From Lingula anatina (taxonomy: Eukaryota; Animalia; Brachiopoda), in assembly GCA_051362555.1 (NCBI GenBank), contig CM120640.1:20956001-21020000 (forward strand): a DNA stretch of 64,000 bases, read 5' to 3'. Position numbers and translations under genes: made by a program. The notes under the pieces are model-generated. The model saw only the letters and a program-made list of their open reading frames with translations, did no database searches and was not told where the DNA came from. Shown in pieces: positions 1,251 to 50,709 of this stretch (position 1 is the first letter of the stretch; the number at the start of each line of letters is the position of its first letter).

Positions 1251-4200
1251 CTGGAATGTCTTGAAATGTTACTAGCACTGTTCCCATTTCACTACCATAT
1301 GCAATGCTCTCTATATCACAGTTTGTTTTTGCTTCAAGAAAATTTTCTAAAAGTTCATTTGTTATGGTCTCTGCCAGTCCCTTGATGAATATCCTGTGCT
1401 TATCAATTGGGGGTGGAGGTGTAGAGAGAATGGCATGAAGTCTACAGCCTTCCAACTGAAGTCCAACCTCTGACTCTGATTTCTGCAACACCCGATTCAC
1501 AGCTAAAAGGATGGATGATATGAATGGATAAGAAGGATTTAAAAATTTTGTCCAGCTTGCTTGATTCATACATTAATCTTTAATATTGCACTGAGTTTAT
1601 AAATGTCATTTAATTATCACAACCTTAGTTGCAATTAACTAGTACAAATGACCTTAATTCATGACAATAAATCAATTTTCATAACAATTATTAATCAAAG
1701 GAAAATCCATGCCATACTGGGTGTGGTAGTACTAGTGCTGTTGTAAATTTAAGTCAACAACAAAAACAAAGAATACAAGTCGGTCAAAATCACCTTCTGG
1801 CTCTTTAAATGTCACCACTGCTTCTCTAGCTTCATTGTTCACTTCCACATTAAGCACATTCCCTCCTCCAGACCTTTTTCGATTTTCAAAAAACATCTGA
1901 ATGGTGACCTTGCTGGTGGACTTTTTTAATCCTTTGACTCGAATGTTGCTAGAACATGCTTTTTTCTGCACAAGTCTTTCTTTTAAGATGTTTTCATTCT
2001 CTAACAGAACAAAGAAAAGACCAATTGACATCTGTTTAAATGAAGTTCAAAATTGAAGACACTTTTTTTTCATCTTCACTATATTTATCAATATCTAGCA
2101 TAATTCTCCAAATTTTTCTTCTCTTTCTAGTTAATACTAAAGAAAAGATGCCAGCTTTTCATACATTTCATATAAAAACTTCATGCATTAAGTTATGATG
2201 TAGTCCACTTTTTCAAATCACATTCTATATCTAACAAAACAATTAAATTGATGGGATTACCCTCTGGCTCTTCTGTTGGTTGTCCTTCAGTGTGTAAACA
2301 TATCTCCAAGTCTTGGCCTTCCCATATAATTTTTTTAGATTGGTTGTGCATTACCACACTTTCAGCAACTGAAAATGTTAAAATTAAAATGTTAATAAGC
2401 AAATTAGATGTGCAAAAATATCTTTCTGGCACAAATGACCTAATTTCAAAGTTTTATTGATAGCAATATCTTCAATATATAACATCCAAAACTGAAAGAG
2501 GTTAAATAAATAAAAATTACCTGCTGCATCTTCAAATGTGATGAGAATGAAATCCTGCTTGTGCTCTATCAGCTCAACTTTCCCCCCACCTGTTCTTTTC
2601 TTGTTTTCAAACAGCATTTCCAGAGTTTCATTAGAGGTTCCCTTCTTTATCCCTCGTACCTCTATAGTTCTTGAAGGCACTGGGAGACTAACTGACAGTG
2701 ATGCACCTTCTAAACTAAGTCCTTTCCTGTCAAGTACCTGCCTGGCCACTGCACATATTATAATGTGTACACTTTAATAAGTAACAAGCAGTAAATGTGT
2801 GTGATTACAGTGTGTGACAAAAAGCTAAATATCACACTTATTCAAATGCTTATTTTTTGAAATACAAAGTTATCCACCATAATTGCTATTTAAAAGGGAA
2901 ATAAAAAATCATAAATAACCATTGAATAAGGTAATTCCTAATTATATTGATTGACAGGATACATTGTGTAATGAATTATCTATTTATCTATCTATCTATT
3001 CTTTTTCTTTTAAACTCACCATTAGGATCACTGAAAGTGATAGTCACCACACCTGTTGTTGGGGAGCGGATTATTTCTTTTATTTCACCTCCACCTGATT
3101 TTTTTGAATTTTCAAAAAACAGACTTATCATCTCATCTGAAGTTGAACTTTTCACTCCTCTGACTTCTACAGTGGTGAAACTGTCTTCCTCTGGGCTGAT
3201 TTCTTCATGTTGTATATCTGGCTGTGGTCTACTAATCAAGACATCTTCACCATCAACACTAAGCACTTCTCGTGACAGCACTCTGGCAGCAACTATGAAC
3301 AAACAATGTTTCAAAGTTGATAGTCAACACCATATTATGAATTTCACCAATGACTGAAAACTCACTTTGATGATTAATAATAATAAAATAATGTTCATCC
3401 TTTCATTACTAAGTAGTAATTTTGGCTTGACATCAAATAATAATTTTGTATAAAGAAAGAAGTCCTGAAGTAAATAACAATTATCCGGTTTAATACTAAT
3501 AGGGTGAATGCTATGAGCAACATAAAAAAAAAAAAAAAAAAAAAATCTAAAACAATTTTTTATCTAATTATCAGGGTTTTTAATCAACATTTTGAATGTT
3601 ATCTTGCTATTTTTAAGTTTATTAAAAAGAAAATAATCTCAATTTTAGAAAAATATAACTATATTTATATTACATTGCTTATATTCTTGATTTACCCTGG
3701 TAATTAAACCAAATACAATTCATTTACAAATGTATAGTTATAAGTTATCTTTCTAAGTCTTTATCACTGACAGTGAAATTTACTTTAAGAAGAAAATAGA
3801 TCTTTAAAAAAAATGAAATTATGAACAGTTCTTACCTTCTGCGTCCTTGTACACTACAGTCATAACTCCACTACTGGGATCCCTGGACAGAATCTCAATG
3901 TCTCCTCCACCTGTTCTTTTCTCATTCTCAAAGAGCATTTCTACCAGTTCTTGAGAAGTTTCCTTTCTTATGCCTTTCAAAATGACAGTGCGCTGAAAAG
4001 GGGAGTCTCTATCTTCTTGTAAATTTTGAGATGGTCTCTGTACTTTCAGATCCATGTCTTGTAATCTGAAGCTGCCCTTTTCTAACACACTTCTTGCCAC
4101 TGCAAATTATTACAACCAATGATCAAAACAGTATTTTTGAAAGGGGAATGCAATTTTTTAATCACCTTTGAACAAAAATAATTCCTATAAACAAATTTAT

Positions 4201-5980
4201 AGTGACTGACAGTATAGACTGTGTAATGAATTATTGTAACTATATAATTTTAACTCACCATTAGGATCACTGAAAGTGATAGTGACCACACCTGTTGTTG
4301 GGGAGCGGGTTATTTCTTTTATTTCACCTCCACCTGATTTTTTGGAATTTTCAAAAAATAGACTTATCATCTCATCTGAAGTTGAACTTTTCACTCCTCT
4401 GACTTCTACAGTGGTGAAACTGTCTTCCTCTGGGCTGATCTCTTCATGTTGTATATCTGACTGTGGTCTACTAATCAAGACATCTTCACCATCAACACTA
4501 AGCACTTCTCGCGACAGCACTCTGGCAGCAACTATGAACAAACAATGTTTCAAAGTTGATAGTCAACACCATATTATGAATTTCACCAATGACTGAAAAC
4601 TAACTTTGATTAATAATAATAATAATAAAATGTTCATCCTCTCATTACTTAGTAGTAATTTTGGCTTGACATCAAATAATAATTTTGTATAAAGAAAGGA
4701 AGCCCTGAAGTAATTAACATGTAGCAATTATCTGGTTTAATACTAATAGGGTGAATGCTATGTGCAACAAAAAAAAAAAAAAAAAAAAAAAAATCTAAAA
4801 CAATTTTTTATCTAATTATCAGGGTTTTTAATCAACATTTTGAATGTTATCTTGCTATTTTTAAATTTATTAAAAAGAAAATAATCTCAATTTTAGAAAG
4901 ATACAACTATATTTATATTACATTGCTTAAGTTCTTGATTTACCCTGGTAATTAAATCAAATACAATTCATTTACAAATGTATAGTTATAAGTTATCTTT
5001 CTAAGTCTTTATCACTGACAGTGAAATATACTTTAAGAAGAAAATAGATCTTTTTTCAAAAAAAAAAAAAAATGAAATTATGAATAGTTCTTACCTTCTG
5101 CATCCTTGTACACTATAGTCATAACTCCACTACTGGGATCCCTGGACAGAATCTCAATGTCCGCACCACCTGTTCTTTTCTCATTCTCAAAGAGCATTTC
5201 TACCAGTTCTTCAGACATTTCCTTTCTTATGCCTTTCAAAATGACAGTGCGCTGAAAATGGGAGTCTCTATCTTCTTGTAAATTTTGAGCAGTTTTGGAT
5301 GGTCTCTGTACTTTCAGATCCATGTCTTGTAATCTGAAGCAGCCCTTTTCTAACACACTTCTTGCCACTGCAAAATATTACAACAAATAACACAAAATTG
5401 CGAAAGTTTAAGATTTTGGTCATGCATTTTATCAAAGAATTATAAGAAGCCACTACAATAAAATTAAAAGTCTTAGACCAAGCCCATGCTAGCCTTTTAA
5501 AGGAAATTTTATTTTTGAAAAAGTGGACTTTTTGCCAAGACATCTTTGTGTACCTAGATCAAATTTTGCCCAGAGTGGACCTTTTTCAGCAAATAGGCTG
5601 GTTTATTTGCAACTATCAGAAATTCAAATCACATGTCATACCTGCTGGATTCTCATACGTAATCAGAGCAACATTTCTGGAATGATCTCTTTTCAATTGC
5701 CTTATGTCTCCTCCACCAGATTTCTTTTCATTTTCAAAAAACATCTCCAATGCTATGTCAGAGGTCTCTCTCTTTATCCCATGGACTTCAACTGTAGCAT
5801 CTTCTTCTTTCTCATTCCTTGCCCTTGCAACTGACAACTGAGCTTCTTCCAACTGCAATATTCCTTTTCCCAAAACTTGATCCACAACTAAAAACAAAGA
5901 CATGATAATAAAAAAAATTGAGTTATTTTCTGGAAGAATATATATATCATTTCTGTCTATTAAGTTGATTAAAAAACAGT

Positions 5981-6061
<81 letters not shown>

Positions 6062-9000
6062 AACAATTTATGAAAAAAGGACACCACATTTTTAAAATAC
6101 CATGTATACTACAAAGGTTTTTAATCTTACCTGCTTTGTCATGAAAAGTAATGTAAGCCACTCCATTTGCTCGATCAACTTTCAAGGTTTCTATAGAACC
6201 TCCTCCTGAGCGTTTTTCACTTTCAAAGAACATCTCAATTGTGCTGTCCTGAGTGGTATCCCTGAACCCACGTACTTCTATGGTTTTATGGTAATACTCC
6301 TCACTCTCTGCTGTGTATGTAGAAATATCTAGTCTGGCACCATCTAACTCAAGATCACCTCTGCTCAATACTGCCTGTGCATCTATTGAAGAAATATTAT
6401 CTATAATTATTAATGATGCTATTTTAAATAATACATGTTCCAACTTTCTCTCAAGTTCACAACTCTTCATAAAAATTTCATGAGATATTTTAAAGCCAAA
6501 TACATCAGGAAGTTTTTTTCCAAGCTTAAGCATCTGTCACATGGACATGTAAGTAACAAAAGAGTATTTTTTAATTTGAAACAATGGAAATATTTTCATA
6601 TTACATACATAATATATATTATATATACAAAGATAAAAGCTGAAAACAAGATTAATCAAAATAATACTAAAAAGAAAATTCAAGACAGAAACATTTTTGC
6701 GAAATCCCATTCATCGATACCTTTATTAACTTGTACAAAATAAAATTCAAGTAAATACCTTCTGGATATCTGAATGTTATATAAGCAACATCCTTCCTTG
6801 GCATGTCAAAGGACTCAATTTCACCACCTCCAGAGCGTTTTTTACTTTCAAAAAACATCTTGATGATTTCACCATCTGTGCCACAGTTAAACCCCTGAAT
6901 CTGAAGGGTTTTATTCTCTGTTTTTGCTGTTTCTGGCACGGTTTTCACTTTTGTTTTATCCAGTTGGTTTTCTGTCTCAAGCCCAATGTGTAGTGAACCC
7001 TGGGTTACAGTCAAAGCAGCACCATCCAGCTGGTGGGAACTTTTACTGAGAACTCTCTCTGAAACTATATAAAAATAGACTGGTTTCATGCACAATGTTT
7101 GAATTTAAGTTTCACCATTTATTACAACCCAACATATTATTTCCCCTTATTTTTATTTTCAAGGTGCGTGTCAGTACGCTTTTCACAGTATCATACCCCG
7201 GAACAAATTTTGAGATGAGATACACTACTTTCACACACCCCTCAGAACCATCGCTATCACATCCCGTACTAGGCAAGAGCGGTGTTGCATCTGATAGCAG
7301 GTACTGATGTACACCTTGAAAACAGGTAGTCTGATTTACCAGTGAACTCAAGATCATTCGGTGCCAAGTCTGGTAGTTGGGTAGGCCTGATGTTGTATAA
7401 CACAAAATATATACAGACTTCAATTAAAAAATGAAAATGACTCTGTTGTTATATATGATAATTATATTATTTAAAAATTATTTACTTAACAGGCTGTTAA
7501 TAAACTGGATTATAAATGGTATTATTTTTCAGAGTTCCTGAAAACAATTATATAAGTTTCTTCTCAATCCATATAGCATGTCAACAAACAATAATAATTA
7601 AGTTCAATCATACCACTGTGTTCATAGCTGTCATACACATCCTATTAAATAAACTGTTTCTTGGGTAATGGATGGAATTAATCAACATTTCATTAAAATA
7701 TCCTTTAATCAATATTTCACATAACAAAATTAAACAGAAAACAAATACCTGCAGGATCCTTGTACACAAAGCGAGCCACCCTCATCTGTGTGTTGTAATC
7801 AAAACTTTTCATGACTCCACCACCAGAGGGAAATTCATTCTCAAAGTACTGCTTTATAGCATTCCTTGTTGTTTGTGGAGTAAATCCCTGCACTGTTATC
7901 AGACAGTTGTACATCTTGAGGTTCCCTAAAAATACAAACAATATTTATAAAACATGTCATTTCAGTGAACGGTTATTGTGATTTTAATGACTAAAAAATT
8001 TGCCTTTCTTTAAACATTCTATTTAAAGTGGTATTTTATATTTAAATAGGTGATGTTATCATTAATTATCCAGCTCAAAAAGTCACAGTTTTTGCAAGTT
8101 TACAAATATTTCTGTTTTAATTAGGCCAAGTAACAAAGCCAAATGATATAAACTTGCAAGCTCATATTAGTTTTTAAGTATGAAATTATATAATGTTATA
8201 TAATGTCAATGCATGCACCTGTAATGTCTATAGATATTTTTCTGTTTTGCTTAATACTTGTCCAAAAAACATCCATCCATTCACCAGCATGTCAGCTTGT
8301 CCATCAATCCATCCATCAATATGTCTATCCTTACTTATAAACTCATTTTGGCTTTTTTTCATAAGAATAACTGCTGCATTCTTTTAAATATAAATATAAT
8401 AAAAATGTCATGAGTACATGTTACATACCTGGGTCCACTGAATGAGATACAGCTTGATATGGAGGCGGAGGATATGTCGGACTTACAGGTACATTCCAGA
8501 TAGGGACACCTGTAGGACCAGCTGGTGACTGACCATAGCCATGATAACCGTATCCTGGGCTGAAGACAGGTCCTGATTGTGATGGGGTAGGTCCCATGTG
8601 ATATCCCCAAGCACTATGAAAATCTTTAAATGCATGAAATCACCATTAAAAACAATTCTGTTTTACAGAATGAAATGAAAATACAAACTGAAATTTAAAG
8701 CAAAATTGAAAAGAATAAATTAAGATCATACAGACATATAGATCTACAGTACTAGTGTGCATATATGTATGTGAGTGTTTGTGTATTAATAAGAGAGAGA
8801 AAAAGAACAAAGAGAAATGAAAACGAATTATTATAAATTATACACTTATCCGTACTACATGTACATGTACCTCCTGCAGCTGGAGATGCCAAGGTTGGTG
8901 CAGCATAATCAGGCCTCCATGCATACTTTGGTTGAGTTTGAGCAGGATCAAAGGGAGCATTGAAGGAAGCAGGGGTACCTTTTTCTAAGTGAGATGATTG

Positions 9001-10094
9001 ATGTTCCATTTCCTGAAATGAATTATCCATACAACAGGCATGGCAATCCAATGTTTCATGGAAAAATCAAGATATTTTCAAATGCCAATTAGCTGCCTAC
9101 GTACTTACTATTAAAATGAATGAATCTGTAGGACAACTGACTGTCAACATTGTTGACACCAAAAAGAAAAAGATGTACATTAGGCATGAGTAACAGTATG
9201 ATCGCTTACCATTAAAAAACAAAATTGACCCGTACCTTTTTTTCCTCCATTTCCTGGATCATTTTTATTGCCAAATCTTCTGGGCATTCTGACAGACTAG
9301 TAAATAAATGTCTACTCTCCATTGGGTGCTGAAGGTGTCTTTGTGAGATATTCTCTCTCACTGTAATTGAAATAAAAAGAGGGATATATGTACTGTAGGT
9401 ATATGGCAATGTTTTTTTTTTCATCACCTATAGTTACCAGCTAAACAATATGTACTACAGGGAATGGGAATACAAAATGCAGATTAAAAAAATAATTAGT
9501 GAATGTCCCCATCTTGTCCAGAAGATTTAAATCTTTAAAAGAGAATATATCCTCCTCAAAGGAAAAGTTACCATCCTTAGCAATACCTTAAATAGTTTGT
9601 GCTGCATTACCGGGTACTTAGGAATGTAGAGAAAACATTGCCTCGGCATTTGACCTAATACATGTAAAGCTGACTATTATTCGAGGTAATTGTATAAAAC
9701 TGATTCGAACTACATCTACCATTTTGAACAGCGCGTTCACATGTGATATACAACTGTACGCGTGTTTGCTTGTCTGATTCATACACGAAGAAAACGAATT
9801 GCAAAAATACTATGTAATAAATGTGTATTATAGTCTACGAAAACAGCCATTACCATGCTTGTCACTGAATATGACCACTGCCTCTTTCTCTTTAGTACAT
9901 ACAACATGGCGGACTTCACCTCCGCCCAAGCGACGGCATTCTTCCTGAAAAAAATTGAGCAGAGACTTCGGGCTGGTGTCCACGGAAACCCCGCTCACGC
10001 GGAGACAGCATTCAGACACAACCCCAGCGTCAGTATTCGTCTCCATCAGGTCGAATTTTTCATCTTTTTTCACTTTGAGCAAAGATGCTCGCAT
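1251..10094 (-). CDS. Poly-RRM protein, PARP14/PARP10-like N-terminal region (5' part only; gene continues past the left edge)
   Basis: 16 phase-compatible GT-AG exons: 10094 (or ATG 10046)-9854, 9360-9236, 9012-8871, 8623-8429, 7925-7749, 7064-6759, 6382-6131, 5887-5642, 5367-5095, 4531-4259, 4099-3836, 3292-3020, 2748-2521, 2368-2261, 2000-1794, 1502-1251. The recurrent motif T(I/V)EVRG...(M/L)FFE(N/S)xK(R/K)SGGGxI...A(Y/V)ITF is the PARP14/PARP10/NMI-type RRM signature. No catalytic domain lies within the window. Confidence 0.85.
3010..5375. repeat. Recent intragenic tandem duplication of a ~1.25-kb two-exon cassette
   Basis: 3010-4105 and 4250-5375 are near-identical, including intron sequence; exon pairs 3292-3020/4531-4259 and 4099-3836/5367-5095. 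Confidence 0.92.
5984..6060. repeat. (TC)n(TA)n compound microsatellite
   Basis: Read directly. Confidence 0.95.
7157..7322. mobile_element. Short MITE-like element
   Basis: Imperfect terminal inverted repeats TTTCAAGGTGCGTGTCAGTAC / GTACTGATGTACACCTTGAAAA; absent at the paralogous site near 32150. Confidence 0.6.
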
Positions 10095-10352
10095 TACACG
10101 TAAGAAAAATTCCCAAAAATTTTACCCAGCGTGTACTTTCGATTTGTGCAGTCACGAGGCTGATAAAACCGGGGATTCCCCTGGTGACGTCAATTTCTAC
10201 CATACTTTAACCAATGAGCAAAGCGAACGAAACGTCATCGCTTGTTATAACTTTTATTTGTAATTTGCGGAGTTTCCAGTTAGTGTCAATTTGCTCCAGC
10301 TGGAATAGAATTTGAGAAGATTTCCAGAGACCATTGAGAAAGGACAGTCTAG
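10095..10352. promoter_or_regulatory. Bidirectional promoter with NF-kB, CRE, CCAAT and IRF-like motifs, plus non-coding exon 1 of the plus-strand gene
   Basis: GGGGATTCCCC 10171-10181; TGACGTCA 10185-10192; AACCAATGAG 10209-10218; IRF-like CAAATCGAAAGT (minus) 10135-10146 and AAAGCGAACGAAAC 10220-10233; Rel-like GGGAATTTTTC (minus) 10104-10114 and CGGAGTTTCC 10268-10277. Locally CpG-enriched. Splice donor AG|GTATGT at 10352/10353 is conserved in copy 2. Confidence 0.75.
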
Positions 10353-10765
10353 GTATGTTGTTGCTGTATTTATTAGTTGAATTTAGGGAGCTGTATTTGA
10401 AAAAATCCTACTTTATTTCTTTTATTTGGAATATCCAGGGTATCATGCAATCACCTGACGTGACGGCAAACAGAAAGTCAAACTGGCCACCATATTATCC
10501 CTTATGAAATGGGCTACGAAAGTTAAGAGGGTTCTGCACCAGTCAGAATTATCAGAATTATAAGGTTGGAGAAAGTTATTGTAGCGAGGGTCCTAGTAGT
10601 TGCAGTACTTGCTGTTGGGGAAGGGGGGTGGGGTGGATATACAAAGTTTAAGTTTCATAATGTGAATATGCTTTTCAATACGTGATGGCTCTTGTGCCAT
10701 GTACAGTTTTGCATGCCAAGGCTTTATTAAAACAAATTGTGTTTTTATGTATTTTAGAAGAAAGA

Positions 10766-27214
<16,449 letters not shown>

Positions 27215-31323: not shown

Positions 31324-31387
<64 letters not shown>

Positions 31388-31793: not shown

Positions 31794-32195
31794 CTAAATG
31801 ACAAAAGTCACATGACATTCACAAGAATTTCAGAATGAATCACCTGTAAAACAAAGGATAATACACTGTATTATATCTAACCTCCTGCTGAATCTGAAGG
31901 GTTTTATTAAGTGTTTTAGCTGTTCCTGGCACTGCTGTCACTTCTGTTTTATCCAGTTGGTTTTCTGTCTCAAGCCCAATGTGTAGTGACCCCTGGGTTA
32001 CAGTCAAAGCAGCACCATCCAGCTGGTGGTCACTTTTACTGAGAACTCTCTCTGAAACTATATAAAAATAGACTGGTTTCATGCACATTGTTTGAATTTA
32101 AGTTTCACCATTTATTACAATCCAACACATCATTTGCACTTATTTTTATTAAAAAATCTACATTGCATTGTCTTTCGTGTGACGTGTATAAATTT

Positions 32196-32421
32196 CACCC
32201 CATTTCCATAGATTTTTAGATCGATCTATCTCTGTGGGGAGTCTCACTAGATTATTGTCAGCTTGGTCAGCTTAAGCGTCTGTTCCGCCTACTAAAAGCT
32301 GTAAGGGGGTAATTAACTATGGTGCCCACTCGGCTGACTGCAATTTAGCGTGAACCCCCAGGGAGTTAGGTCGATCTAAAACTTAATCTTTAGATCGATC
32401 TAAATCTCTGGGAAAGCACCC
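32196..32421. mobile_element. ~225-bp MITE family, three copies in the window
   Basis: Same sequence at 32196-32421, 34537-34716 (partial) and inverted at 46902-47127; TAGATCGATCTA palindromes near both ends. Confidence 0.85.
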
Positions 32422-33113
32422 TTTATGTACTATAATAAAATATGCTGCTTTTTTTCAAGTAACCCAGTCTAAAACTTGTTAAACACAATTTTCAATGTTT
32501 TATAACACAAATTAGATACAATTAAAAATTGAAAATGACTCTGTTGCTATATATGATGATGATAACATTATTTAAAATTTATTTACATAATAGGCTATTA
32601 ATAAAATGGATTATACAATGGTATTACTTTTCAGAGTTCCTGAAAACATTTATATAAGTTTCCTAGCTCTCAATCCATGTCTCAATCCATGGCATGTCAA
32701 CAAACAATAATTAAGTTCAATCATACCACTGTGTTCATAGCTGTCATACATGTATATACATCCTATTAAATAAACTGTTTCTTGGGTAATGGATGGAATT
32801 AATCAACATTTCATTAAAATACCCTTTTATCAATATTTCACATAACACAATTAAACAGAAAATAAATACCACCACCAGAAGGAAATTCACTCTCAAAGTA
32901 CTGCTGTATGGCATTCTTTGTTGTTTGTGGAGTAAATCCCTGCATTGTTATCAGACAGTTGTGCATCTTGGAGTTCTCTAAATTGCATACAAACAATAAA
33001 CATGTGATTTAAGTGACTGGTCGTTGTGATTTTAATGACTAAAAAACCTGCCTTTATTTACACATTCTTTTCAAAGTGGTATTTTATATTTAAATAGGTG
33101 ATGTTGTAATTAA

Positions 33114-33785
33114 AGTCATAGTAACTCTTTGTTTTGGCCAAAAATTGGATTTCCTGGAGTAAACGGCAATTTTCCCGTACTTACCAATGGTCAACGACCC
33201 CATTTCTGCATTCAAAGTTAGTCTAGGGTTTTTTTTTTTTTCTAAACGCTAGGTTTTTTGTTAAAATCTCCTAAGAGATTTTAACTGACGGGGCCCTCTC
33301 TGACATTGCATAGTCACGCGATATCGAGCGGGGTTTTCTGGTGACCTACTTAAAACTGCAGGAAAAGCTGACAACAACAACACTTTATTACAATAAAATA
33401 AAATTCATATGATATAATCGTTTTATTGCTCAAAATGCATTTATATCTACAATGTGTGCAGTTCTGGGCCTTTGGTTATCCGATACACTGTACAAAAACT
33501 CGCAACTTACGTCTGAGGATTGCATCATGCGCCTGCTATATCTTATCCTGCCACATGTTATTTGGCCTCGAATGAACGCGAGAATCCGCCTGACACGCCA
33601 AAGTCCTTGGCAACGGATGCTTTGACGACCCGGAAGAAAGCCACCGAAAGCCCTATTGACAAGCATAGTTTTTAGTTTTACTACAATAACAGCCGTTTTA
33701 GTAGTGAAAAACAATATAATATATTTCCATGCATTGTTTAAAATGTTTTTCTTGCGGAATATTGAATCTCAGAGTTATTATTGCA
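33114..33785. mobile_element. TTAA-targeting Kolobok-like non-autonomous element
   Basis: Flanked by TTAA on both sides; empty site CATTAATTATCCAG near 8062 in copy 1; left end resembles the element at 35874. Confidence 0.6.
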
Positions 33786-35312
33786 TTAATTATCCAGCTC
33801 AAAAGTCACAGTTTATGCAAGTTTACAAATATTTCTGTTTTAATTTGGCCAAATACTAAAGCCAAGTGATATAAAATGGTTTTCAAAACTTGCAAGCTTA
33901 TATTGGTTTTTAAGTCTGAAATTATATACAGTGTTATATAATGTCAATGCATGTACCTGTGATGCCTATTGATCTTTTTCTGTTTTGCTTAATATTTGTC
34001 CAAAAATACATCCATCCATTCACCTGTATGTCATCTTGTCCATCAATCTGTCTATCCTTATTTATAAACTCATTTTGGCATTTTTCTTCAGAATAACTAC
34101 TGCATTCTTTTTTTAAAATATCAATATAATAAAAAATGTAATGAGTACATGTAACATACCTGTGTCCACTGAATGAGATACAGCTTGATATGGAGGTGGA
34201 GGATATGTTGGGCTTACAGGTACATTCCAGACATAGGGACACCTGTAGGACCAGCTGGTGACTGACCATAGCCATGATAACCGTACCCTGTGATGCAAAG
34301 AGGTCCTGATTGTGATGGGTTGGTCCCATGTGATATTCCCAAGCACTATGAAAATATGTAAGTGTATGGAAACATTAAAAACAATTCTGTTTTGCTGAAT
34401 AAAATGAAAATATAAACTATATATAAACTGCATCGGTATGAGTATCAGAATAAATTAAGATCATACAGACATTTAGTGCGCATGTATGTATGTTAGTGTT
34501 AGTGTGTTAGAAAGAGAGAGAAAAGGAACAAAGACCACATTCCCATACATATTTAGATAGATCTATCCCCTTGGGGAGTCTCACTAGATTGGTGTCAGCT
34601 TCACAGGCTTACAGAATGTCTGTCCCGCCTACTAAAAGCTGTAAGGGGGTAATTAACTATGGTGCACGCTCAACTGACAGCAATTTAGCGTGAACCCCCA
34701 GGGAGTTAGGTCAATCCGGATGGATTTTAAAAAATAACCTATCACTGAATTTCCTCTCTTTTGCAAAACTCCAGAACATTTAGTACCTTTATACCGATAT
34801 CTTAAAAAGAATTAAGTAGATCCCCCTTAAGGGGAAAAATTACCATCCCTGGAAATGCCTTAAAATATTAGTTTGTGCTGCACTACGGGGTACTTCTGAA
34901 TGGCGTGCAGAATTAATTTGCAAACATTGAGTTATCATTCAGCCTTATTCAGGCAAAGCTGAATACTGTTCGCGGTAATTGTATAAGACTGCATGATTCG
35001 AACTAGATCTACAGTACATTTACCATTTTGAACAGCTATTTCAGACGTGATACAACTATACGTGTGTTTGCTTGTCCGATTCATACGCCCACCGGTACGT
35101 GCTAATTCATACACAAAGAAACAGTAATGCAAAAATAGTATATATGTGTATTATAGTCTACGAAAACAGCCATTAGCCCATTACCATATGCTAGTCACTG
35201 AATCTGACCAATGCCTCTTTCTCTTTAGTACATACAGTTCACCTCCACCCAAGCGACGGCATCCTTCCTGAAAAAAAAAACATCTTTTTCTCTTTGAGCA
35301 AAGATGCCTGCA

Positions 35313-35553
35313 TAACACGTAAGAAAAATTCCCAAAATTTTTACCCATTGTGTACTTTCGATTTGTGTAGTCACGTGGTGATAAAACCGGGGATTTCCCT
35401 GGTGACGTCAATTTCTACCATATTGTAACCAACGAGCAAAGCGAACGAAACGTCATCGCTTGTTATAACTTTGTAATTTGCGGAGTTTCCAGTTAAGTGT
35501 CTGTGATAGAATTTGATACGATTTCCAGAGACCTTTGAGAAAGGACAGTCTAG
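35313..35553. promoter_or_regulatory. Duplicated promoter and non-coding exon 1 of fusion-gene copy 2
   Basis: GGGGATTTCCC 35389-35399, TGACGTCA 35403-35410, IRF-like ACTTTCGATTT and AAAGCGAACGAAAC retained; donor AG|GTATGT at 35553. Confidence 0.7.
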
Positions 35554-36982: not shown

Positions 36983-39900
36983 ATGGAGCCTGTGGATTCT
37001 AGAAATCAAGTACGTCACAAAAGCAACAAGTCCATTCTGGTGTTGGGTCTACCAAAGACCATTACAGTGCAAAAGATAAAAATACACTTCCAGAAAAAGG
37101 GAAATGGTGGAGGTGATGTTACCTCAGTTATTTACCCATTCAACAAGATAGCAAACACTGCTATTGTGACATTTGGCAAGGATGAAGGTATTTAGCATTT
37201 AAAATTGGATAAATAATGTCTCATTAAATAAGGGGGAACATAATATCTGTTTGATAGGGGCGGATGCAGAGATATTTTCTGACAAACTTTCAAATTACCT
37301 TTTTGATCCATTTTTGACCCTTTTCCAATTAATAGAAAAAGTTGGATGCCCATCAGTGTAAACTTGAAAAATTCTGACTGCCTCCGAAAAACCCATTAGA
37401 TTACCTCTGCCTTCCCCTGTTTGAATAAAAGCTGCAGTAGTTTTGAAATATTTCGGGTACGTTTATTTAATTTTAAGAAATTTATTATAAGCAAGACATT
37501 TTTTCCTGTTTTCTTCTTTGCATGGTCTCCAGGTCATCTGTATGCCCCAGTACCATTATTCCCGTTCACTAATTTTCCCCCAATCTGTAAATGGAATAAA
37601 TTTTGTATTGGTCTGGTAAGTGAAAAAACTAAAAATTGACCCTAGGATATGCTGTATAATATTCAGTCTCTGAAATTTGCTATACTATAGTATTGGCTGA
37701 CATCCATCCCCCCCCCCTTGAATAATTAAAAAATTAATAATGCAGGCTGACCCTGAAATAAAGTTTGTATTTTTGTTAGATTTTATTTGTTGAAAAAACA
37801 AAAAACTAGAATAAATTTTATTTATTGGTCCTGTTTATAGAGAGTCCCCTCTCATTAACAAATTATCAATGTCTAGCCATAGGTCTTATTGTTCTTTTAT
37901 TTATTCTATATGCTATCCCTTCTGAATCAGACCTGTCAACACTCCTAATCTTGTAGGGAGTCTCCCTATTTTGGGAAATATCTCCTGATTTTTCGATTCA
38001 GACCAAAAAATCCTGATCTATCTATTATCACACATGGCAACATGAAGGGACTTCATTGACAAAAGTGGACCATCACATAATTATTTTCTTAGTTTCATTG
38101 ATTGAGGGTACCCTAGGTTCTAGATTTCAGTTTTGCCAGTTCGAGACTTGTGGCTTCCAAATATGGAGCTCCAGGCGAACACAGCTGTGACATACGAGAC
38201 TTGTGACTTCCAAATATGGAAGCGCCCAAGGCAAAATTTTGCCAAACACACCCCTTGCCTGATGCTAGTTTCTAGAGTCAGTTTTTATGTACAGACACAG
38301 ATGTGTCTGTACATATTGCCATCACCTGCGTCTGTCGTCGCCGTCGTCGCCGATGGTGATGCCGATGCCGATGCCGATGCCGATGCCGTGCACTTTCCTT
38401 GTAAACACGATAAGTGGAACACAGTTTTATTTTTTGCTTTTATATTTACAGAGCTGATGAATATTCATAAAATGCAGGTCAAGTTCGAAAATCAGCATGA
38501 TCGGGCCATTATAGTAGAAGTTATGCTGTTTTTTTCACTTTTCAGCATATATACAACCCTGTAAACACATTTTAAGGAAAACCGTTAGGCCTGTTGTCAT
38601 GAAACTCACAGGAGTAATCAATCTTACTAAAACGCAGGACAAGTTTGAAAATTGGCATGATTGGGCCACTATTTTAGTAGTTATGCTGATTTTTTCATTT
38701 TTCAGCATATATGCAACACTGTAAACACAATATAAGAAAAACAGATAGGCCAATTGTCATTAAACTCACAGGAGTGGTCAATCTTACTAAAACGCAGGTT
38801 GAGTTCGAAAATCAGCATAATCAGGCCATTATTTTAGAAGTTATGCTGTTTTTTCACATTTCCTGAGATTCAATTCTTAGGCATGTTAACAGTCTCATTA
38901 TTGAACTAATAAGATACGTAAAAGTGTTTGTTTGACATTTCCTGCATCTTTACAACATTGTTAGTTGATTATGTAAAAATTATGGTAAACTTGTTATCGT
39001 GTTTTGCGTAATAAAGTGTCAAAAATGGAAATAAACTCATATCATTGCAGTTTGTCAGATTCAATCATTCACTATATTCAGAATCTCAGAATGGAAGAAA
39101 TTGGACATTTAACACTGCTCTATTGATATTTTTCCCATCTCATCAATTTTCTTAGTTGATCATATAAAAATGGCAGTAAACTGTTAATTTTGTTTTATGT
39201 TAAAAATTGTTAAAAATGGGGAAAAAACATTTCAGAACAGTGCTGTCTTGTTTACATTTTGGCATTTTCAAGTTTTGACTTTGAAGTTCCATGGGCCTGA
39301 AGACCTTTGCTAATCATATTTTCTGAATATCCATAATACTAATATTTTATTAATAAAAATTGATGGTCATTATGCTGTTAAACATTATGTAATATTGCAT
39401 CAAAATTTGAAAAAAACATATTTTGGGCACTGCTCCCATGATGACCATTTCAGAAAAACCATGTCACTTACTGTTCTCAAACTTACAGTAAAGAAACCTG
39501 GGACTAAAATACAGCTTCAGTAGGCAATGCAATCTGTTTGGTAATTCTTACTGCCAGTTAAACAGTTTTTTTGTGAAACTTTTTTCACATATTGGCATTT
39601 TCAAGGTGTGACTTTGAAGTTCCACGGGCTTGAATACCCATGCTAGTCACATTTTCTGAAAATACATGATACGTATATTTTATTATTAAAAATTGACGGT
39701 CATTATGCTGTTAACCATTATGTAATATTGCATCAGAATAGAAGAAAACACAATTTTGGGTGCTGCTGCCATGATGACCATTATGGGAAAACCATGTTAC
39801 TTATGATTACCAAACTTTCAAAAAAGATATACAGGACTAAAATGCAGCCTGAGTTGGAAAAACAGTCTAATTGGCTTCTTTTTCTGGAAGTTATACATTT

Positions 39901-42900
39901 TCAAAGTGCGAACTTGAACTCCCATGGGCCTGAAGCCTTATGCTTGTTACACATTTTACTTACATTGGTATTACCTGTTGAGCATAATTAAAATTTGATG
40001 TTGAATTTGCAGTTTAACATGTACTTTTGCATCAGAATTGACAGTAGCCTATTTTGTGCATAGTTATTTCCTGCTTTTTGTCTGTACATTTGACAGCTTT
40101 GCTGCCTTGTTCTGATATGGGTTTTATGAAATCAAGATCGAACTGGCAAAACTGAAATCTAGAACCTAGGGTACCCTCAATCAATGAAACTATAAGAAAA
40201 CAATCACACGTCACATCTCTGTCCCACCTGGAGCTGCCTTTCCTGCCTTGCATTGATGTTATCTGATGTTATCTCGCAGCGATATTAGATGCCTTTAACA
40301 GATTTTTGCAAAATTTATTGTGCACTACTTCTATGTCTTTTTGCCTGGATGCATGCCCCAGATTTCCGTGCCATTATTTACAATTGGAAGAATTTTTTTA
40401 TCAAACAATGTAAGCCACACACTAACATCAATGTCTCCATAACTAAACATATGTGTTTCCTTATAATAAATATTGCTTTTGATGCTTGATCAGCCAAATA
40501 CTTTTGTGTTTTTGTCCAAACACCTTTTATTGTTGATGTTACAAGCAAGCATAATCTACATAATCACAGAAGAGCAATTGACTGTCTTGATTGTTGTCCC
40601 GGGGATTTTGTGGGACATGTTAAGGGGCAGTGCCTGAGTAATTAGATAAACAATTAATGGTCATGTAATCATCCTTGAGATTTCATTACAGGGTCACTTT
40701 GCTGAAAATTACCAGCACTTAAACCAGAGGTATATCTGTGAATTAATATCTAGTGAAAAATCAATCTGTGGCAATGTTAGAGGGTAATTTGTATCATTCT
40801 TTGTTTTTTTAGTTATGGACACCATTTTCAAGTATGCACATACTATCTGTGAGACCCCTGTTCAGATTCATCATTTTCCACAGGTATTTAATTACTCAGT
40901 AGAATTTTGTGAAACTTATTTTTATGGATGGTCAGATTAAAGGGATAACAACTCTTCGTATAATATCCATATTTTACAATAAATGCATTGTAAACAACTT
41001 ATAGAAATATAATAATTTTCTGCCCCATTGACATACAGCATAGAATGCTAGCAGAAAATTTCGTTCAAATATCATTTTAAACAATGCCGTTTGGTAATTC
41101 TCTTAGTTATACTACTTGAAACTGTATGCTGGCATTTGGTTGGCTTTTGTTGCACAAAATTGACTTCATATGCATCTTTAAGAGAATATATATAAAAAAA
41201 AAAGAAAAAAAAAAAAACAGGGACTAACTTTGAATGTTGGAATGGATTTACTAACTATTGGTTAGTATGGGAAAATATTGTCCTTTACCCCAGGAAAATC
41301 CATTGCTTGGCCAAAATGAACAGTTGTTATCCCTTAAAGTACTAGTTGCTACACAAGTTATCCACTGCATGTGATATATGTGATATACAAGAGCATAATT
41401 ATTGAGGCATAGCTGAGATATAGTTATACTTGTCTGTCACATACAGTAGAGGATGAGTAGTAGTGCATGTAACTGACTTTCCACACCTGGATTAAGAAGA
41501 TGATTGCACTTGTATTTCACTTGAAATGCACTGAAGACTATAAAAATATAGTCGAGCCAGAGCCTCTTCTAAGAAAAATAAAAGTGCAATCCTTTTGTCA
41601 AAAGTGCATGTCAAGGAATAAGATACAATATTTCTGTTGTAAAATTTGATCTGCATAAAAATGTAGTTTTAAGATACCACACAGTGAACATTTCTAGTGT
41701 GAATATATTTTTCCTTGGTACATTGTATTTTGTAAGGTTAAGTAAATACATGTATAAATAATGATGCACAGTTGCCAGTAATTTTATGGAAATGTGAAGA
41801 CTTGAGAATTATTACATAAGTAATTTACCCTATTTCCATACAGATAGCCTGTGCAAATGTCCCAGTGGACTGCTACATCCACCAGATTTTTTATGTACAG
41901 ACACAGATGTGTCTGTACATATTGCCATCACCTGTGTCTGTCGTCGCCGATGCCTATGCCGTCGCCGGCGCCGTGCATTTTCCTTGTAAACACGATAAGT
42001 GGAGGGCAGTTTTACTTTTTGGCTTTATATTTACAGAGCTGATGAATATTCATAAAACACAGGTCAAGTTTGAAAATCAGCATGATCGGGCCATTATTGT
42101 AGAAGTTATGCTGTTTTTTCACTTTTCAGCATATATGCAACCCTGTAAACACATTTTAAGGAAAACCGTTAGGCCTGTTGTCATGAAACTCACAGGAGTA
42201 ATCAATCTTACTAAAATGCAGGTCAAGTTTGAAAATCGGCATGATTGGGCCACTATTTTAGTAGTTATGCTGTTTTTTCATTTTTCAGCATATATGCAAC
42301 ACTGTAAACACAATATAAGAAAAACAGATAGGCCAATTGTCATCATTAAACTCACAGGAGTGGTCAGTCTTACTAAAACACAGGTTGAGTTCGAAAATCA
42401 GCATAATCGGGGCATTATTTTAGAAGTTATGCTGTTTTTTCACATTTCCTCAGATTCAACTCTTAGGCATGTTAACAGTCTCATTATTGAACTAATAAGA
42501 CATTTAAAAGTGTTTGGTTGACATTTCCTACATCTTTACAACATTGTTAGTTGATTATGTAAAAATGATGGTAAACTTGTTATCATGTATTGTGTAATAA
42601 AGTGTCAAAAATGGAAATAAACTCATATCATTGCAGTTTGTCAGATTCAATCATTCACTATATTCAGATTCTCAGAATGAAGGAAATTGGACATTTAACA
42701 CTATTCTATTGATATTTTTCCCATCTCATCAGTTTTCTTAGTTGATCATATAAAAATTGCAGTAAACTGTTTATTTTGTTTCATGTGAAAAAAGTGTTAA
42801 AAATGGAAATAAACCCATGTCAGAACAGTGCTGTCTTGTTTCACATTTCCCCAGATTCAATTCTTAGGCATGTAAACAGTCGCATTATTTAACTAATTAG

Positions 42901-45900
42901 ACATGTAAAAGAATCTCAGAATGGAGGAAATTGGACATTTAACACTGTTGTATTGATATTTTTCCCATGTCATCAATTTTCTTAGTTGATTGTATAAAAA
43001 TGGCAGTAACCTGTTAATTTTGTTTTATGTTAAAAAATTGTTAAAAATGGAAAAAAAAAGATTTCAGAACAGTGCTGTCTTGTTTACATTTTGGCATTTT
43101 TAAGTTGTGACTTTGAAGTTCCATGGGCCTGAAGACCTTTGCTAGTCACATTTTCTGAATATCCATGATACTAATATTAAATTGATGGTCATTATGCTGT
43201 TAAACATTATGTAATATTGCATCAAAATTTGAAAAAAACGTATTTTGGGCACTGCTGCCATGAGGACCATTATGGGAAAAGCATGTTACTTATGATTGCC
43301 TAACTTTCAAAAAAGAAATACAGGACTAAAATGCAGCCTGAGTTGGAAAAGCAGTCTAATTGGCTTCTTTTTCTGGAAGTTATACATTTTCAAAGTGTGA
43401 ACTTGTTACACATTTTACTTACATTGGTATTACCTGTTGAGCATAATTAAAATTTGATGTTGAATTTGCAGTTTAACATAATGTACTTTTGCATCAGAAT
43501 TGACAGTAGCCTATTTTGTGCATAGTTATTTCCTGTTTTTTGTCTGTACATTTGACAGCTTTGCTGCCTTGTTATAATAATTTTTATAACGTACAAAATT
43601 ATAATGTGTATATAATAAAGTTTTATGTTGAAATAAAAAACAGTTTGAAATAATTTTGTACTGGGATTGCTAGAAAAATTATATTACATTAAAAAATCCT
43701 TTCAGTTATTTCTATCTGTCACATCCCAAAGCTTATCATTTCATTATATGATCTGTCTCTTGACCATTATACATCACTGAAAATTATGAAGATGGTAAGG
43801 TGAAATAAAAATTTATAGTAGTAGGTATTATTATACTTGTGCACTTTCAGGTATTTTGTGAAGTGCAAGCTGTAGTTGACCCACCCATTGCTGCCCAACT
43901 ATTTGATGAAACCCAAACAACCTTAAACAATTTAGAGCAAGAATGTTGTGTTATGGTAATAAATGAGGCAGGGAGTATAAGATTGAAAGGGAATTGGCAT
44001 CAAGTGCAAAATGGCAAAGAATATCTGTTGATAAAATATATTGAGAGTCTGCAGCAAAAGGCTTCTCCCAATGAAGAAGAAAGCTCAGAAGTTCACACCC
44101 CTTTGCATGGAAAGAAAAGAAAATCAGTTGATATTGAATCCCAACCAAGCACAGTGTTACAGAACCAAGGGCATCATCTAGAGCAAAACTCAAATGTTCA
44201 CCAACAACAGCATCAATATCCTAACTGGAAGGACAAGGCTCAACCTGAGAAAGACGAGACGCAGTCTGTTGATGGAAATGTTAATGGTGGAACTTACTTT
44301 TTTGAAACAATGCGAGGTCTTAATGAAGAGACCCATGCATATGTGATGTGGAAACACCAGAATAAACTCTCTTTGACTGATGGAGATATAGACATTAGAG
44401 GGAAACTTACTGAAGATGGTGAATACCAAGTCCTAGTAGGTGCAAGAAGTCAGACACACTTGGACAAGGCCCTTGATGCATATGTTGAATGTTATCAAAA
44501 GACATATGGCTCTGTTAAAACTGAGAAAATTCAAGCTCCCCAAACCACTACAAAAGAGCAGTGTGAAGGTATCCTTCAGGAGTTGATGGAGAGTTCTCCG
44601 GATGCACTCATTAGCTATGACCCTGATAAGCATGGTTTCACCATTACTGCACCTTTACAAAAAATAGATGGTCTGAAAAACAAAATAGAGATGCAATGTT
44701 TTTCTGTGAACGGGAGTCAAGTGCAAAAGAGAAATCTCAGGAAGTTGGCCAAAGCCCCATCTTTTCCTCCAAATTCTGAAAATTTTATAACGAAGAAAGG
44801 ACTGATGATACGCATTTACCAAGGTGACATTACAACCAGCAATGTAACAGCCATTGTTAATGCTACCAATGAAAGACTTCAGCATGGGGGAAGAGTGGCA
44901 AGGGCCATCAAGGATGCTGCTGGGAAAGACTTCGACCACCAGTGTCGAGAAGCATTGAAGGAAAAGGGTTCATTTGGGGTTACAGATGTGTTGCACACAT
45001 CCACTGGGGGAGAGGGATCCCGATTGAAGTGCAGATATGTCTTGCATGCAGTAGGTCCTCAATGGCAGGACTATGTGGAGAAAGAAAGATGCGCTATTGA
45101 ACTGCGTTGGACATTTTTCAATTGCCTTAAGTATGCAGGGGACCCAGATACAATTGGTGCAGAATCTGTGGCCATTCCAGCAATAAGTTCAGGTGAGAAT
45201 TAAATGTGTTACTACTGGTATTTAGCAAGGTCTGAATTTTTTTTTTAATTCCAAAGTTTGTTGCAGGGCCCAAGGATTCATTGTCACTTGAGAGTAGCAG
45301 GAGGTAAATTTATCTGAAACAGCTCTCCCAGTTAAGGCAGTAAATGACTATTAAAAAGATGGTTATTATTAGGATGGTTGGCACTTTTTGGGCATTTCCC
45401 TTTATATATGTATGTTTCCAAAACTTTGTTCCACTTTCTATTACTCCATCCTGTTCCATACACCTGCATTGGTGTTTTTGTACCTGCCTTATACCATTTT
45501 TTAACCCCATAGCGCCGGGAACCGTACATATGCGGTTCATTTTAAAAAGTCCTCAGTGCCGGGAACTGCATATACGCGGTTTCTGTGTTTACATGCTTGT
45601 ACTGTCCCCTGTCGTTTGTAACAATTCATGCTTCTATCACAAGACTAACTTAATGTTAGTTTTTTGTTTACTACCGGCTTTTGAAAGATGTGTAGAGAGA
45701 ATTAGATAATCAAAAAGCGATTTATTTCAACCAATGTTGAGGCGCTAAGAAGTCAAAATGGTGGCGAGAGGTCAGCAGAAGTTATGGGTTGAGAAATGTT
45801 CTAGATTTGTTAGAAAATTCAGACTTCGGGGAAGAATCCTTGATAGATTTTGATACTCCGATAACTTCAAAGATGATGTACATTTGGCTAGTATGAGTTA

Positions 45901-48900
45901 ATTGTCAGAGAGCAGATTCGGATGTGGGGCTTGATTTATGAAAAACTCTGATGATACTAACAGCAGTAACCAAGCAGACATCAACAGTAATTGGAAGGGC
46001 TATATTGCTGATAAAATGACTGTAACCGTTCTGTGGTAAGTCAGGCTAAATGTTGCCTTGCGTGCTGCAACCACATGTCTTTTCCTGCTTGTGTGTAAAT
46101 ACAGATGTAATATGTTTACTAGTGCGCTGCATCAACATGTCTTTTCCTGCTTGTGTCTAAGTACAAATGACATAGATCTATGTTTACTTGTTTGCTGCAT
46201 CAACATATGTCTTTTCCTGCTTGTGTGTAAATACAGATGTAATATGTTTACTAGTGCGCTGCATCAACATGTCTTTTCCTGCTTATGTCTAAGTACAAAT
46301 GACATATGTTTACTTGTTTGCTGCATCAACATATGTCTTTTCCTGCTTGTGTGTAAATACAGATGTAATATGTTTACTAGTGCGCTGTATCAACATGTCT
46401 TTTCCTGCTTGTGTATTAGTACAAATGCCACGTTTCCTTGTGTTTTTATGATGCAATTTTTATTCACGGAAGTGTAATATTTGCTCATGACAATGTTTGT
46501 ATTCTTGTATATGATTTGAGTGCAAAACAAAATTTTATGACTATCCTGGTTCAGTTGATTAAAAAAATTAATATTGAAAAATGTATTTTATTTACAATTT
46601 ATTTGTGATTACAATTTATTTGTAATTATAAAAGTAATTAGGTGGAAGTCTTCTAGTCAGCTAGCCTGCCTGTATATTGTGCAACTCTGATGTGATACAG
46701 GTTTTTAGGTACAGTACGCCTCCCAGGAAATTTATTATAACTCAAAAACTAAATAAGATATCTTTATGGAATTTTCTGACATTGTTTCAAACATATTTTG
46801 GATGTTTATGAGAAAATTTCAACAAATTATTTGGTAAAGTGAAAAAGAATGTGCATGCTGAAATTAAGGTTTTGTTTTTTAATTCTCTTCGAGAAAAGCA
46901 AGGGTGCTTTCCCAGAGATTTAGATCGATCTAAAGATTAAGATTTAGATCGACCTAACTCCCTGGGGGTTTACGCTAAATTGCAGTCAGCCGAGCGGGCA
47001 CCATAGTTAATTACCCCCTTCCAGCTTTTAGTAGGCGGGACAGACGCTTAAGCCGGTCAAGCTGACAGTAATCTAGTGAGACTCCCCACAGGGATAGATC
47101 GATCTAAAAATCTATGGCAATGGGGTGCAAGTCTCATATTTAAACTCCTGCTATTTCTACCTGAGTCAACAAATGTAAATAAAACTGATATGATTTTAAA
47201 GCTTACATTCTTGGCTTTTTAAAAATGTACAGTTCTTAGGTGTTTTCTAGACAAGTGAATACATTATCATTGATTAAATGAGGCCACCTGTAAAATTGAG
47301 TGCATCCGGGTAGATGGCTCAGGACCAAGGGCACTTTCTAGGTCAGATGCTGTCAGGCTCTATGGGGTTATATATAATGTCATACATATACTTTTCATAT
47401 GGAAATAATTTTGTCACAAATTACAGGGATTTTTGGAGCTCCCAAGGGGACAGTGGCACAGGCACTGCTTGAAGCTGTTTTGGATTTTGATAGAGAACTC
47501 AAGCAGCACAGCACTCTTCAAGAAATCCACCTGGTTAACATTGCTCCTGACATAACTCATTTGATCACAAAGAAATTTGTCAAGATTGGTGCCCCAGACT
47601 GGAAGGGCAACGGATATCTAGCAGCTAACATAGCCAGTAAAACCATACCTGGAGGTCAAGATCATGAAAGTTTTGAGGGAACAAATGTAGATGCTTGCGC
47701 CATTTGTATGGATGCAATGGTCAACCCAAAGCGCCTTGAGAAATGTGGCCATGTCTTTTGCACCAGCTGCATTGACAAGGCATTTAAGCTGAGTAAACCT
47801 GTCTGCCCAACCTGTGGAGCCATTTATGGAGTGATAAAGGGTAACCAGCCACCTGGGAACATGACTTACAGAACTTTTCGTTCTAGCCTGCCAGGACATG
47901 AAGGCTATGGCACAATAGAGATAACTTATTCTTTTAGGGTAGGAATACAGGGGGTAAATACTCATTTTTTCTTTTTTTTTTTCATTTTTTTTTCAGAAAT
48001 TTATTAAATTGACAAATAATAGTGCTAGAATTATATACTAGTGAATATGTCATTAAAATATGTAATACTTCTTGCATTAGAAAATATAATATTTTGGTCC
48101 AATGAACTTTTGCCTAAAAGATACATGTATTGTTTTAGGAAGATCACCCTCATCCAGGCACTTTATATAGAGGTACCACACATGTGGCTTACCTGCCAGA
48201 TTCAACAGAAGGGAGGAAGGTACTAAGACTGCTGCGCAAGGCATTTGATAACAAAGTGGTGTTTACCATTGGAAGGTCCACTACCACTGGCAAAGAAGGG
48301 CAGATAATATGGAATGATATCCACCATAAGACTAGCCAGTATGGCGGACCTACAAAGTATGATTTAAGATTACATGACATTTTCCATACTTGACACAATT
48401 TGCCCCGATTTCTAGAATGTAAGAGAAATCACCCAATCATGTTATCCCAAAATGTTATCAGCAATGCTACGAGGAGCATTCTTAAGCTTACACAGGGTTC
48501 ATGATTAAGATCAGGTCAAATGTTTGGACGTTCATGTTGTACAGTAGTATATGTTCTAAAACATAAACAGTAAATTTTCACTCATAATATTTTACATGTA
48601 CAATATAAGCTTATATGTGAAATACTTATAACTACTTGCTAACAGTAATTTATTGCCACAAAAGATTATATAATATAGTATATTTCCTTTCATATCTATC
48701 ATATTTGCTTTTATTTTTAAAACCTGCTGTGGTTAATTTACTTTGTAAGTGATACTGATCAGGACTCAGGAGTTGGCTTATATGTATTCTAGTTTGATAC
48801 ATGTACATGCATATATTTTGATAAATATCTGATATATATCTCAATCATCTATAGATTTGGGTATCCAGACCCCGGGTACCTTCAGAGAGTTCAGGAAGAA

Positions 48901-50678: not shown

Positions 50679-50709
<31 letters not shown>

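Follow-up and report, generated by a model that had tools for sequence, protein, structure and literature searches.

The window analysed here is a 64,000-nucleotide stretch of Lingula anatina DNA, an animal sequence with 35% GC, in which two genes lie head-to-head and are transcribed divergently from one short, motif-bearing interval (Table 1). The left gene, on the minus strand, begins with a long array of RRM units and runs off the start of the window. The right gene, on the plus strand, encodes a putative Deltex ligase fused to an ART domain. Both the right gene and the promoter are present a second time farther along the window (copy 2).

Table 1. Positions of genes, promoter motifs and duplicated features in the window
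Feature	Position	Strand	Basis or remark
Left gene, 5' part, 16 exons, continuing past the window start	1251..10094	-	exon model; first three introns read-supported
Intergenic promoter interval (left-gene ATG to right-gene first donor)	10095..10352	.	sequence and reads
Rel-like GGGAATTTT, in the left-gene 5' leader	10106-10114	-	pattern match
IRF-element-like AAATCGAAAGT	10135-10145	-	fits AAANNGAAASY (8 such matches in the window)
Palindromic kB-type site GGGGATTCCCC	10171-10181	.	pattern match
Perfect CRE TGACGTCA, 3 bp from kB	10185-10192	.	pattern match
NF-Y-type CCAAT box AACCAATGAG, CCAAT at 10211	10209-10218	+	pattern match
Degenerate IRF-like AAAGCGAAC	10220-10233	+	one mismatch, in the GAAA core
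Rel-like GGAGTTTCC	10269-10277	+	pattern match
Right gene, non-coding first exon	10290..10352 (5' end approximate)	+	reads and splice 10352 to 10758
Weaker Rel-like GAAGATTTCC	10316		pattern match
Right gene, copy 1, 9 coding exons, 1088 aa	10766..27214	+	exon model, Pfam, reads
Fusion point, stopless last DTC exon spliced in frame to first ART exon	22536..23198	+	reads
Left-gene remnant, copy 2, broken	31888..35313	-	sequence comparison
Duplicate promoter, copy 2	35314..35552 (~35.3-35.55 kb)	.	sequence comparison
Right gene, copy 2, 1035 aa, open	36983..51647	+	triad His to Tyr, macrodomain glycine loop altered

Divergent transcription from a short interval

The left gene has its start codon at 10094 and another Met at 10046, and the first splice donor of the right gene follows position 10352. 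The resulting distances of 258 and 306 bp agree with a preliminary description of this DNA, which had placed the two landmarks about 260 to 300 bp apart. Four RNA-seq runs, chosen by their species label, were aligned to positions 8800-11050 and gave 8, 0, 22 and 28 reads, run X4 contributing none. Runs X1 and X2, which are stranded, show depth of a single orientation to the left of 9940 and only of the opposite orientation to the right of 10244. On the minus strand, the intron 9360/9854 is skipped in five reads of X7 and two of X2, and the intron 9012/9236 by one and three reads in two runs; on the plus strand, the intron 10352/10758 is spliced out in three reads of X2. Spliced reads of opposite strand leave the interval 10095-10352 on both sides and read ends fall inside it, which bears out the head-to-head layout and the divergent transcription that the preliminary description had proposed.

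Mean read overhangs place the ends near 10116 on the left and at 10290-10295 on the right, about 175 bp apart, the 5' ends resting on two to three reads per run. The two divergent transcripts start less than 1 kb apart, as at a bidirectional promoter (few reads, caps not mapped), and the RNA-seq read ends put the promoter core within ~10116-10290. The bin 10168-10243, which holds the kB, CRE and CCAAT motifs, has zero RNA depth in this small set of reads. The 5' part of left exon 1 is covered in the unstranded run X7 alone, and no position with at least five molecule starts was listed in the promoter for the runs aligned to 8800-11050. Reads over the promoter are of the copy 1 type, those on the left covering sequence that is deleted in copy 2, and of the 17 differences from copy 2 within the right gene's first coding exon, 1 was listed in reads.

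Motif content and composition of the promoter

All of the elements named in the preliminary description are present: the kB site, the CRE at a spacing of 3 bp, the CCAAT box, two IRF-like motifs and further Rel-like sites. The consensus patterns were picked after the sequence had been seen, and chance occurrence was estimated from 5000 dinucleotide shuffles of the 258-bp interval. The kB site recurred at a frequency of 0.001, the CRE at 0.0056, the two jointly in 0/5000 shuffles and the extended NF-Y box at 0.0076; a bare CCAAT, at 0.45, is ordinary. Across the whole 64 kb, kB-CRE pairs within 258 bp occur in the promoter at 10095-10352 and in its duplicate, and nowhere else. A pattern search of the interval found neither a strict ISRE (GAAANNGAAA) nor a GAS element (TTCNNNGAA). 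Head-to-head gene pairs and kB/CRE motifs are common.

The CpG o/e is 1.05 in the interval and 1.17 at 9900-10300, against a window median of 0.26 in 400-bp windows, and 2% of such windows reach the value of the promoter, repeats elsewhere in the window being as high. High CpG o/e marks an unmethylated promoter in invertebrate methylation systems, and the composition supports a CpG-rich promoter of the unmethylated type. A second CpG-rich region, partly repeat-like and with a kB-type match at 63068, lies at 61000-63800 upstream of a GH85 gene.

A tandem duplication leaves a second promoter beside a broken left partner

A tandem repeat of about 25 kb has copied ~6895-31861 to 31888-56700, including the promoter at ~35.3-35.55 kb that the preliminary description had missed. 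Because one breakpoint lies within the left gene and the other within the GH85 gene, only the right gene and the promoter were copied whole. The left-gene remnant lacks exons 2 and 3 entirely and about 106 bp of exon 1, and it ends inside exon 6. At the duplication junction this remnant points into a GH85 3' fragment on the same strand, so that leftward transcription in copy 2 could yield a chimeric RNA. The GH85 gene itself (endo-beta-N-acetylglucosaminidase-like by Pfam) occupies 54200-60110 on the minus strand, tail to tail with the fusion gene, and its 3' part is duplicated near 29770-31860.

With its left partner dead, the duplicated promoter offers a natural control for motif directionality. 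Its kB site (GGGGATTTCCC) still matches the consensus and its CRE is unchanged at 35403; the IRF-like motifs (minus-strand at 35354, degenerate at 35438) and the Rel-like motifs at 35482 and 35325, which correspond to the 10269 and 10106 sites, are retained, and the CCAAT is lost, reading CCAAC. The loss could be taken to mean that NF-Y acts for the left gene, an idea that we dropped because the change is one of 4 in an 89-bp block. In the promoter core 10141-10280, 6/134 sites differ from copy 2, compared with 446/4841 in introns and flanks (one-sided p = 0.033) and with a dS of 0.19, the core having been chosen post hoc (p = 0.07 for the full 258 bp). This slower divergence, a weak signal, would argue for function with respect to the right gene and hardly bears on the left one.

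Since copy 2 retains both kB and CRE despite its dead left partner, the right gene may be the only one that the two motifs serve. The interval might then consist of two overlapping one-way promoters, with kB/CRE acting for the fusion gene and the left gene transcribed constitutively in the same open chromatin, without co-induction. The read depth of the two genes likewise does not track across runs, left exon 1 being well covered in X7 and the 5' end of the right gene hardly at all, a comparison confounded by the alignment cut-offs. Against such an arrangement, the palindromic kB and CRE motifs sit about 80-90 bp from the start codon of the left gene, closer to the left read ends, and domains of one pathway are found in both genes. 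We regard the two one-way promoters as unlikely and prefer a promoter that is shared by both genes.

The left gene encodes an array of PARP14-type RRMs

The left gene contributes 1187 open codons, with no stop in the window, that encode 12 PARP14-type RRM units and a proline-rich linker. Pfam RRM_PARP14_3 matches 10 of the 13 minus-strand frames scanned, six of them above the curated cut-off, and the N-terminal PARP14-type RRMs expected of a PARP14-like protein are present. Macro, KH, WWE and ART domains are absent from these 1187 aa, beyond which the gene runs off the window. The RRM exons are all of phase 1-1, so that the array can grow by exon duplication. The segments 2942-4120 and 4197-5388 are a recent internal duplication of a two-exon RRM pair, 92% identical.

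A profile of the 12 RRM exons, searched against 1.84 billion representatives, retrieved 2081 relatives, none of them a close ortholog (best identity ~32%), and the last left-gene exon as a query found no match among proteins of 147-2000 aa. In the best 24 multi-RRM relatives, 17 carry a macro and/or PARP domain, two a GTPase (AIG1 or URGCP) and five no effector, and where macro or PARP domains occur the RRM array fills the first 900-1400 residues, as in the left gene. Seven of the first 10 relatives looked up by name bear the label PARP14-like or PARP. By profiles made for this analysis, the 150 relatives listed comprise 48 with ART, 22 with macro only, 2 with DTC and 78 with none of these, many of the last being short. 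Judging from the array and its relatives, the left gene is likely PARP14-like, an assignment we hold with some assurance, and its macro/WWE/ART part would fall beyond the window start.

It is quite improbable that the left gene is instead another RRM-array immune protein, such as an RRM-GTPase, an RRM-only protein or a second DTX3L-like ligase, in which case the likeness to DTX3L-PARP9 would be partial. Its effector-free 1187 aa, the GTPases and effectorless proteins among the top relatives, the two DTC proteins and the low best identity would all fit that identity. They are opposed by the 17/24 top relatives with macro and/or PARP domains and arrays of like length, and, weakly, by the empty search at 147-2000 aa, which fits a longer protein. 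A PARP14-like left gene is the assignment we retain.

Three proteins (P0088, P0108 and P0109) join PARP14-type RRM arrays to AIG1/URGCP GTPases or to a GT4 conflict-type glycosyltransferase. Their architectures suggest that such arrays may be a reusable sensor module in invertebrate immunity.

The right gene is a DTX3L-type ligase fused to an ART domain

In a single spliced frame, the right gene joins an RRM/NID region, an unassigned middle, a macrodomain, a RING-HC domain, a DTC domain and a degenerate ART domain. The N-terminus matches RRM_PARP14_3 (E = 1.4e-6) and NID (E = 9e-6). The middle has no Pfam KH match; its Atlas lead of 0.78 (leads all <0.8) is to a cluster 36% of whose members carry KH_PARP14. 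The macrodomain of copy 1 keeps its two glycine-rich motifs, and copy 2 has changes in both halves of the first.

The RING is of the C3HC4 RING-HC type and is followed by a DTC domain whose best solved match is DTX3L (104.7 bits, versus 68.8 for DTX2). His832 and Glu858 match His582 and Glu608 of DTX2, as counted along the PDB chain with an inferred numbering offset; according to the accessible part of PMC7615817, both DTX2 residues are required for ADP-ribose ubiquitylation. These features support a DTX3L-type Deltex ligase with its predicted ligase residues intact. The preliminary description had implied a DTX3L-like gene, which is supported, and had missed that the protein has a macrodomain and a PARP domain of its own.

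The last DTC exon is spliced to the first ART exon in 14, 12 and 14 reads of X1, X2 and X3, taken at 88% likeness and with no X8 row among the matches listed. The DTC domain is thus not C-terminal, and ~220 further residues with the ART domain follow it. The fusion-point reads carry three copy 2-type letters and one letter found in neither copy, and what the reads establish is therefore a fusion in the gene family, not in copy 1 alone.

The fusion-gene intron 21142-22535 holds a high-copy element (~21157-22087), read on both strands and likely a transposon, shortened forms of which skip 774 bases in reads. The minus-strand frames 12420-12785 and 23677-24355 look by eye like LINE reverse-transcriptase fragments; Pfam gave no match in two scanned LINE-like frames.

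The fused ART domain has an eroded NAD+ site

Among solved structures, the fused ART domain is closest to PARP14 and PARP15. Its triad reads H-Y-V in copy 1 and in the RefSeq Lingula anatina protein P0001, and Y-Y-V in copy 2, so that copy 1 retains the H-Y-hydrophobic pattern. The ART domain of copy 1 keeps 33 of 45 conserved columns, compared with 30-45 (median 42) in 50 relatives. In both copies and in P0001, other residues stand in place of the GFNR loop, the Ala after YF, a pocket Ser and the nicotinamide-stacking Tyr, the last of which is present in 47/50 relatives; the roles of these NAD+ pocket residues follow PARP1 numbering. Between the two copies, dN/dS is 0.18 for the macrodomain, 0.29 for the DTC and 0.63 for the ART domain. 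The fused ART domain is likely a pseudo-enzyme, its NAD+ site eroded as in the inactive PARP9, with inactivity short of certain because copy 1 keeps the triad His and Tyr. Copy 2 may be a ligase that is both reader-dead and writer-dead, or a decaying copy. A tree of ART domains (53 rows, quick method, long stem of 1.13) did not point to a donor for the fused domain.

Distribution and descent of the fusion

The right gene is 78-85% identical to P0001, which points to a lingulid source for the window; the automatic database record of P0001 already contains the domain string of the fusion. The P0001 model has two tandem macro-RING-DTC units and one ART domain, and it could be a merger of two tandem copies such as the window has, with a different duplication layout. 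Among 83 homologs of the RING-DTC-ART region (1054-3357 aa), 77 have a DTC domain, 57 have macro and DTC, and one, P0001, has DTC and ART. The macro-RING-DTC homologs come from molluscs, annelids, amphioxus, tunicates, corals, a sponge and Lingula. Absence of the fusion elsewhere is weakly tested, since shorter proteins were searched only by a 96-aa query, which gave 4 matches. One macro and DTC protein (P0075, 1360 aa) is labelled Endozoicomonas atrinae and sits on a 748-kb contig, either a host-derived gene or contamination.

In a RING-DTC tree from which 12/79 rows were left out (near-duplicate, multi-copy or partial) and which had no DTX1/2/3/4 outgroup, the fused RING-DTC groups as the sister of an unfused Lingula protein (support 84). 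This placement suggests that the ART domain was gained within the lineage. A search of titles and abstract starts, with subscription papers mostly outside its coverage, found no paper on a DTC-ART fusion or on Lingula with deltex and PARP. The available text of PMC11251020, PMC13224862, PMC4245714, PMC8476169 and the preprint 10.64898/2026.04.23.720386 mentions no such fusion, and Fig. 1d,e of the preprint may show one. On present sampling, the fusion looks lineage-restricted.

A proposed shared promoter for a putative ADP-ribosylation and ubiquitin module

Our main reading, to which we give a probability of about 0.58, is that a bidirectionally transcribed, CpG-rich promoter serves a likely PARP14-like left gene and the right fusion gene, and that the two are switched together in infection by an arrangement independent of that in tetrapods. 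Rel/NF-kB and CREB/ATF would bind the adjacent kB and CRE palindromes and act in either orientation, with NF-Y supplying basal activity, and the kB, CRE and IRF-like motifs would likely turn both genes on together during infection. We infer the co-induction and the factor binding from the motifs and the gene content. In sea anemone, NF-kB, IRF and STAT motifs lie near poly(I:C)-responsive genes (PMC8476169, available text). The left protein would write mono-ADP-ribose, and the right protein would read or erase it through its macrodomain and ubiquitylate it through its RING-DTC. The eroded ART domain would be a non-catalytic docking module, the role that PARP9 would play in trans in vertebrates. 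DTX3L is predicted to touch the ART regions of both PARP9 and PARP14 (PMC13224862, in part).

Pairing and fusion would most likely have arisen in the brachiopod lineage, independently of the tetrapod DTX3L-PARP9 pair. The preliminary description had left ancient microsynteny and convergence side by side; convergence is the most likely and appears far likelier than microsynteny, because the vertebrate pairing is dated after the lungfish split, with zebrafish DTX3L at a separate locus (preprint 10.64898/2026.04.23.720386, available text), and PARP9 derives from a vertebrate PARP14 duplication (PMC13224862, accessible part). A head-to-head DTX3L/PARP14-like pair of the bilaterian ancestor, surviving here and modified in tetrapods, is very improbable: both families are older than bilaterians according to the available portions of the same two sources, and in one scallop a DTX3L-like and a PARP14-like protein both lie on 43,197,688 bp contigs, probably one chromosome, but their accession numbers are hundreds apart, not adjacent, the vertebrate locus is reportedly too young, and the motif set is unlike the STAT/IRF promoter of vertebrates. 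Synteny by accession numbers, tried in this scallop and in a gastropod, gave non-adjacent genes and was uninformative.

The way in which DTX3L, PARP9 and PARP14 link ADP-ribosylation with ubiquitin is under active study, and we know of no settled job for the inactive ART domain of PARP9. The expressed fusion of a DTX3L-type ligase, a macrodomain and a putative pseudo-ART is the most interesting element of the locus, and such a single-chain macro-RING-DTC-ART protein is a ready model for the structure and biochemistry of this coupling. Its eroded NAD+ site suggests two separate origins of a pseudo-ART role. If head-to-head pairing did arise independently a second time, this would mean that co-regulation was selected and not accidentally inherited. 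We advance only tentatively, and with rather more doubt than belief, the broader proposal that lingulids independently built a compact PARP14-PARP9-DTX3L antiviral module, in which a reader/eraser-ligase-pseudo-ART polypeptide is co-induced with a giant PARP14-like writer through an NF-kB/CREB promoter. If true, this natural fusion would show how DTX3L and PARP9 fit together, and the locus would represent a second head-to-head origin on a pre-interferon, NF-kB-based switch.

Comparison with known systems

One of the closest known arrangements is the tetrapod DTX3L-PARP9 pair (human 3q21.1, beside PARP14), in which two divergent genes likewise share a short common promoter and include an RRM-RING-DTC ligase, and in which a macrodomain, an inactive-type ART domain and a RING-DTC are likewise united in one functional unit. 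In humans, DTX3L and PARP9 share an IFN-gamma promoter in head-to-head orientation, and the PARP9 ART domain is inactive (PMC11251020, available text). In the brachiopod, the macrodomain and the ART domain are fused to the ligase itself. PARP9 (KH-macro-macro-inactive ART) has no RRM array, whereas the brachiopod partner opens with 12 RRM units. The vertebrate promoter is IFN-gamma responsive with STAT and IRF sites, as described in the accessible text of 10.64898/2026.04.23.720386, whereas the brachiopod one has kB, CRE and CCAAT motifs and lacks GAS and a strict ISRE. The layout therefore resembles the DTX3L-PARP9 pair but is not that locus, its partner not being PARP9 and its promoter having no GAS or strict ISRE.

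The macrodomain-bearing DTX3L-like ligases of other invertebrates share the macro-RING-DTC core, and the same preprint holds, in its available part, that early DTX3L bore a macrodomain that was lost upon the appearance of PARP9. These ligases end at or shortly after the DTC domain, and an ART domain is found only in P0001 and the two window copies (83 homologs). The left gene is akin to the RRM-expanded PARP14-like proteins of molluscs, amphioxus and echinoderms, with tandem RRM_PARP14_3 units, about one per exon in the left gene, at 25-32% identity, and PARP14-like duplications are frequent in invertebrates (PMC4245714, in part). It differs in that none of the KH, macro, WWE and ART parts of these proteins falls within the window, which makes it a candidate member of the group. 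With the inactive PARP9 and PARP13, the fused ART domain shares a clade-3 ART fold and an eroded NAD+ site. The triad is Q-Y-T in PARP9, whereas copy 1 reads H-Y-V, and its losses fall in the loop and the nicotinamide pocket.
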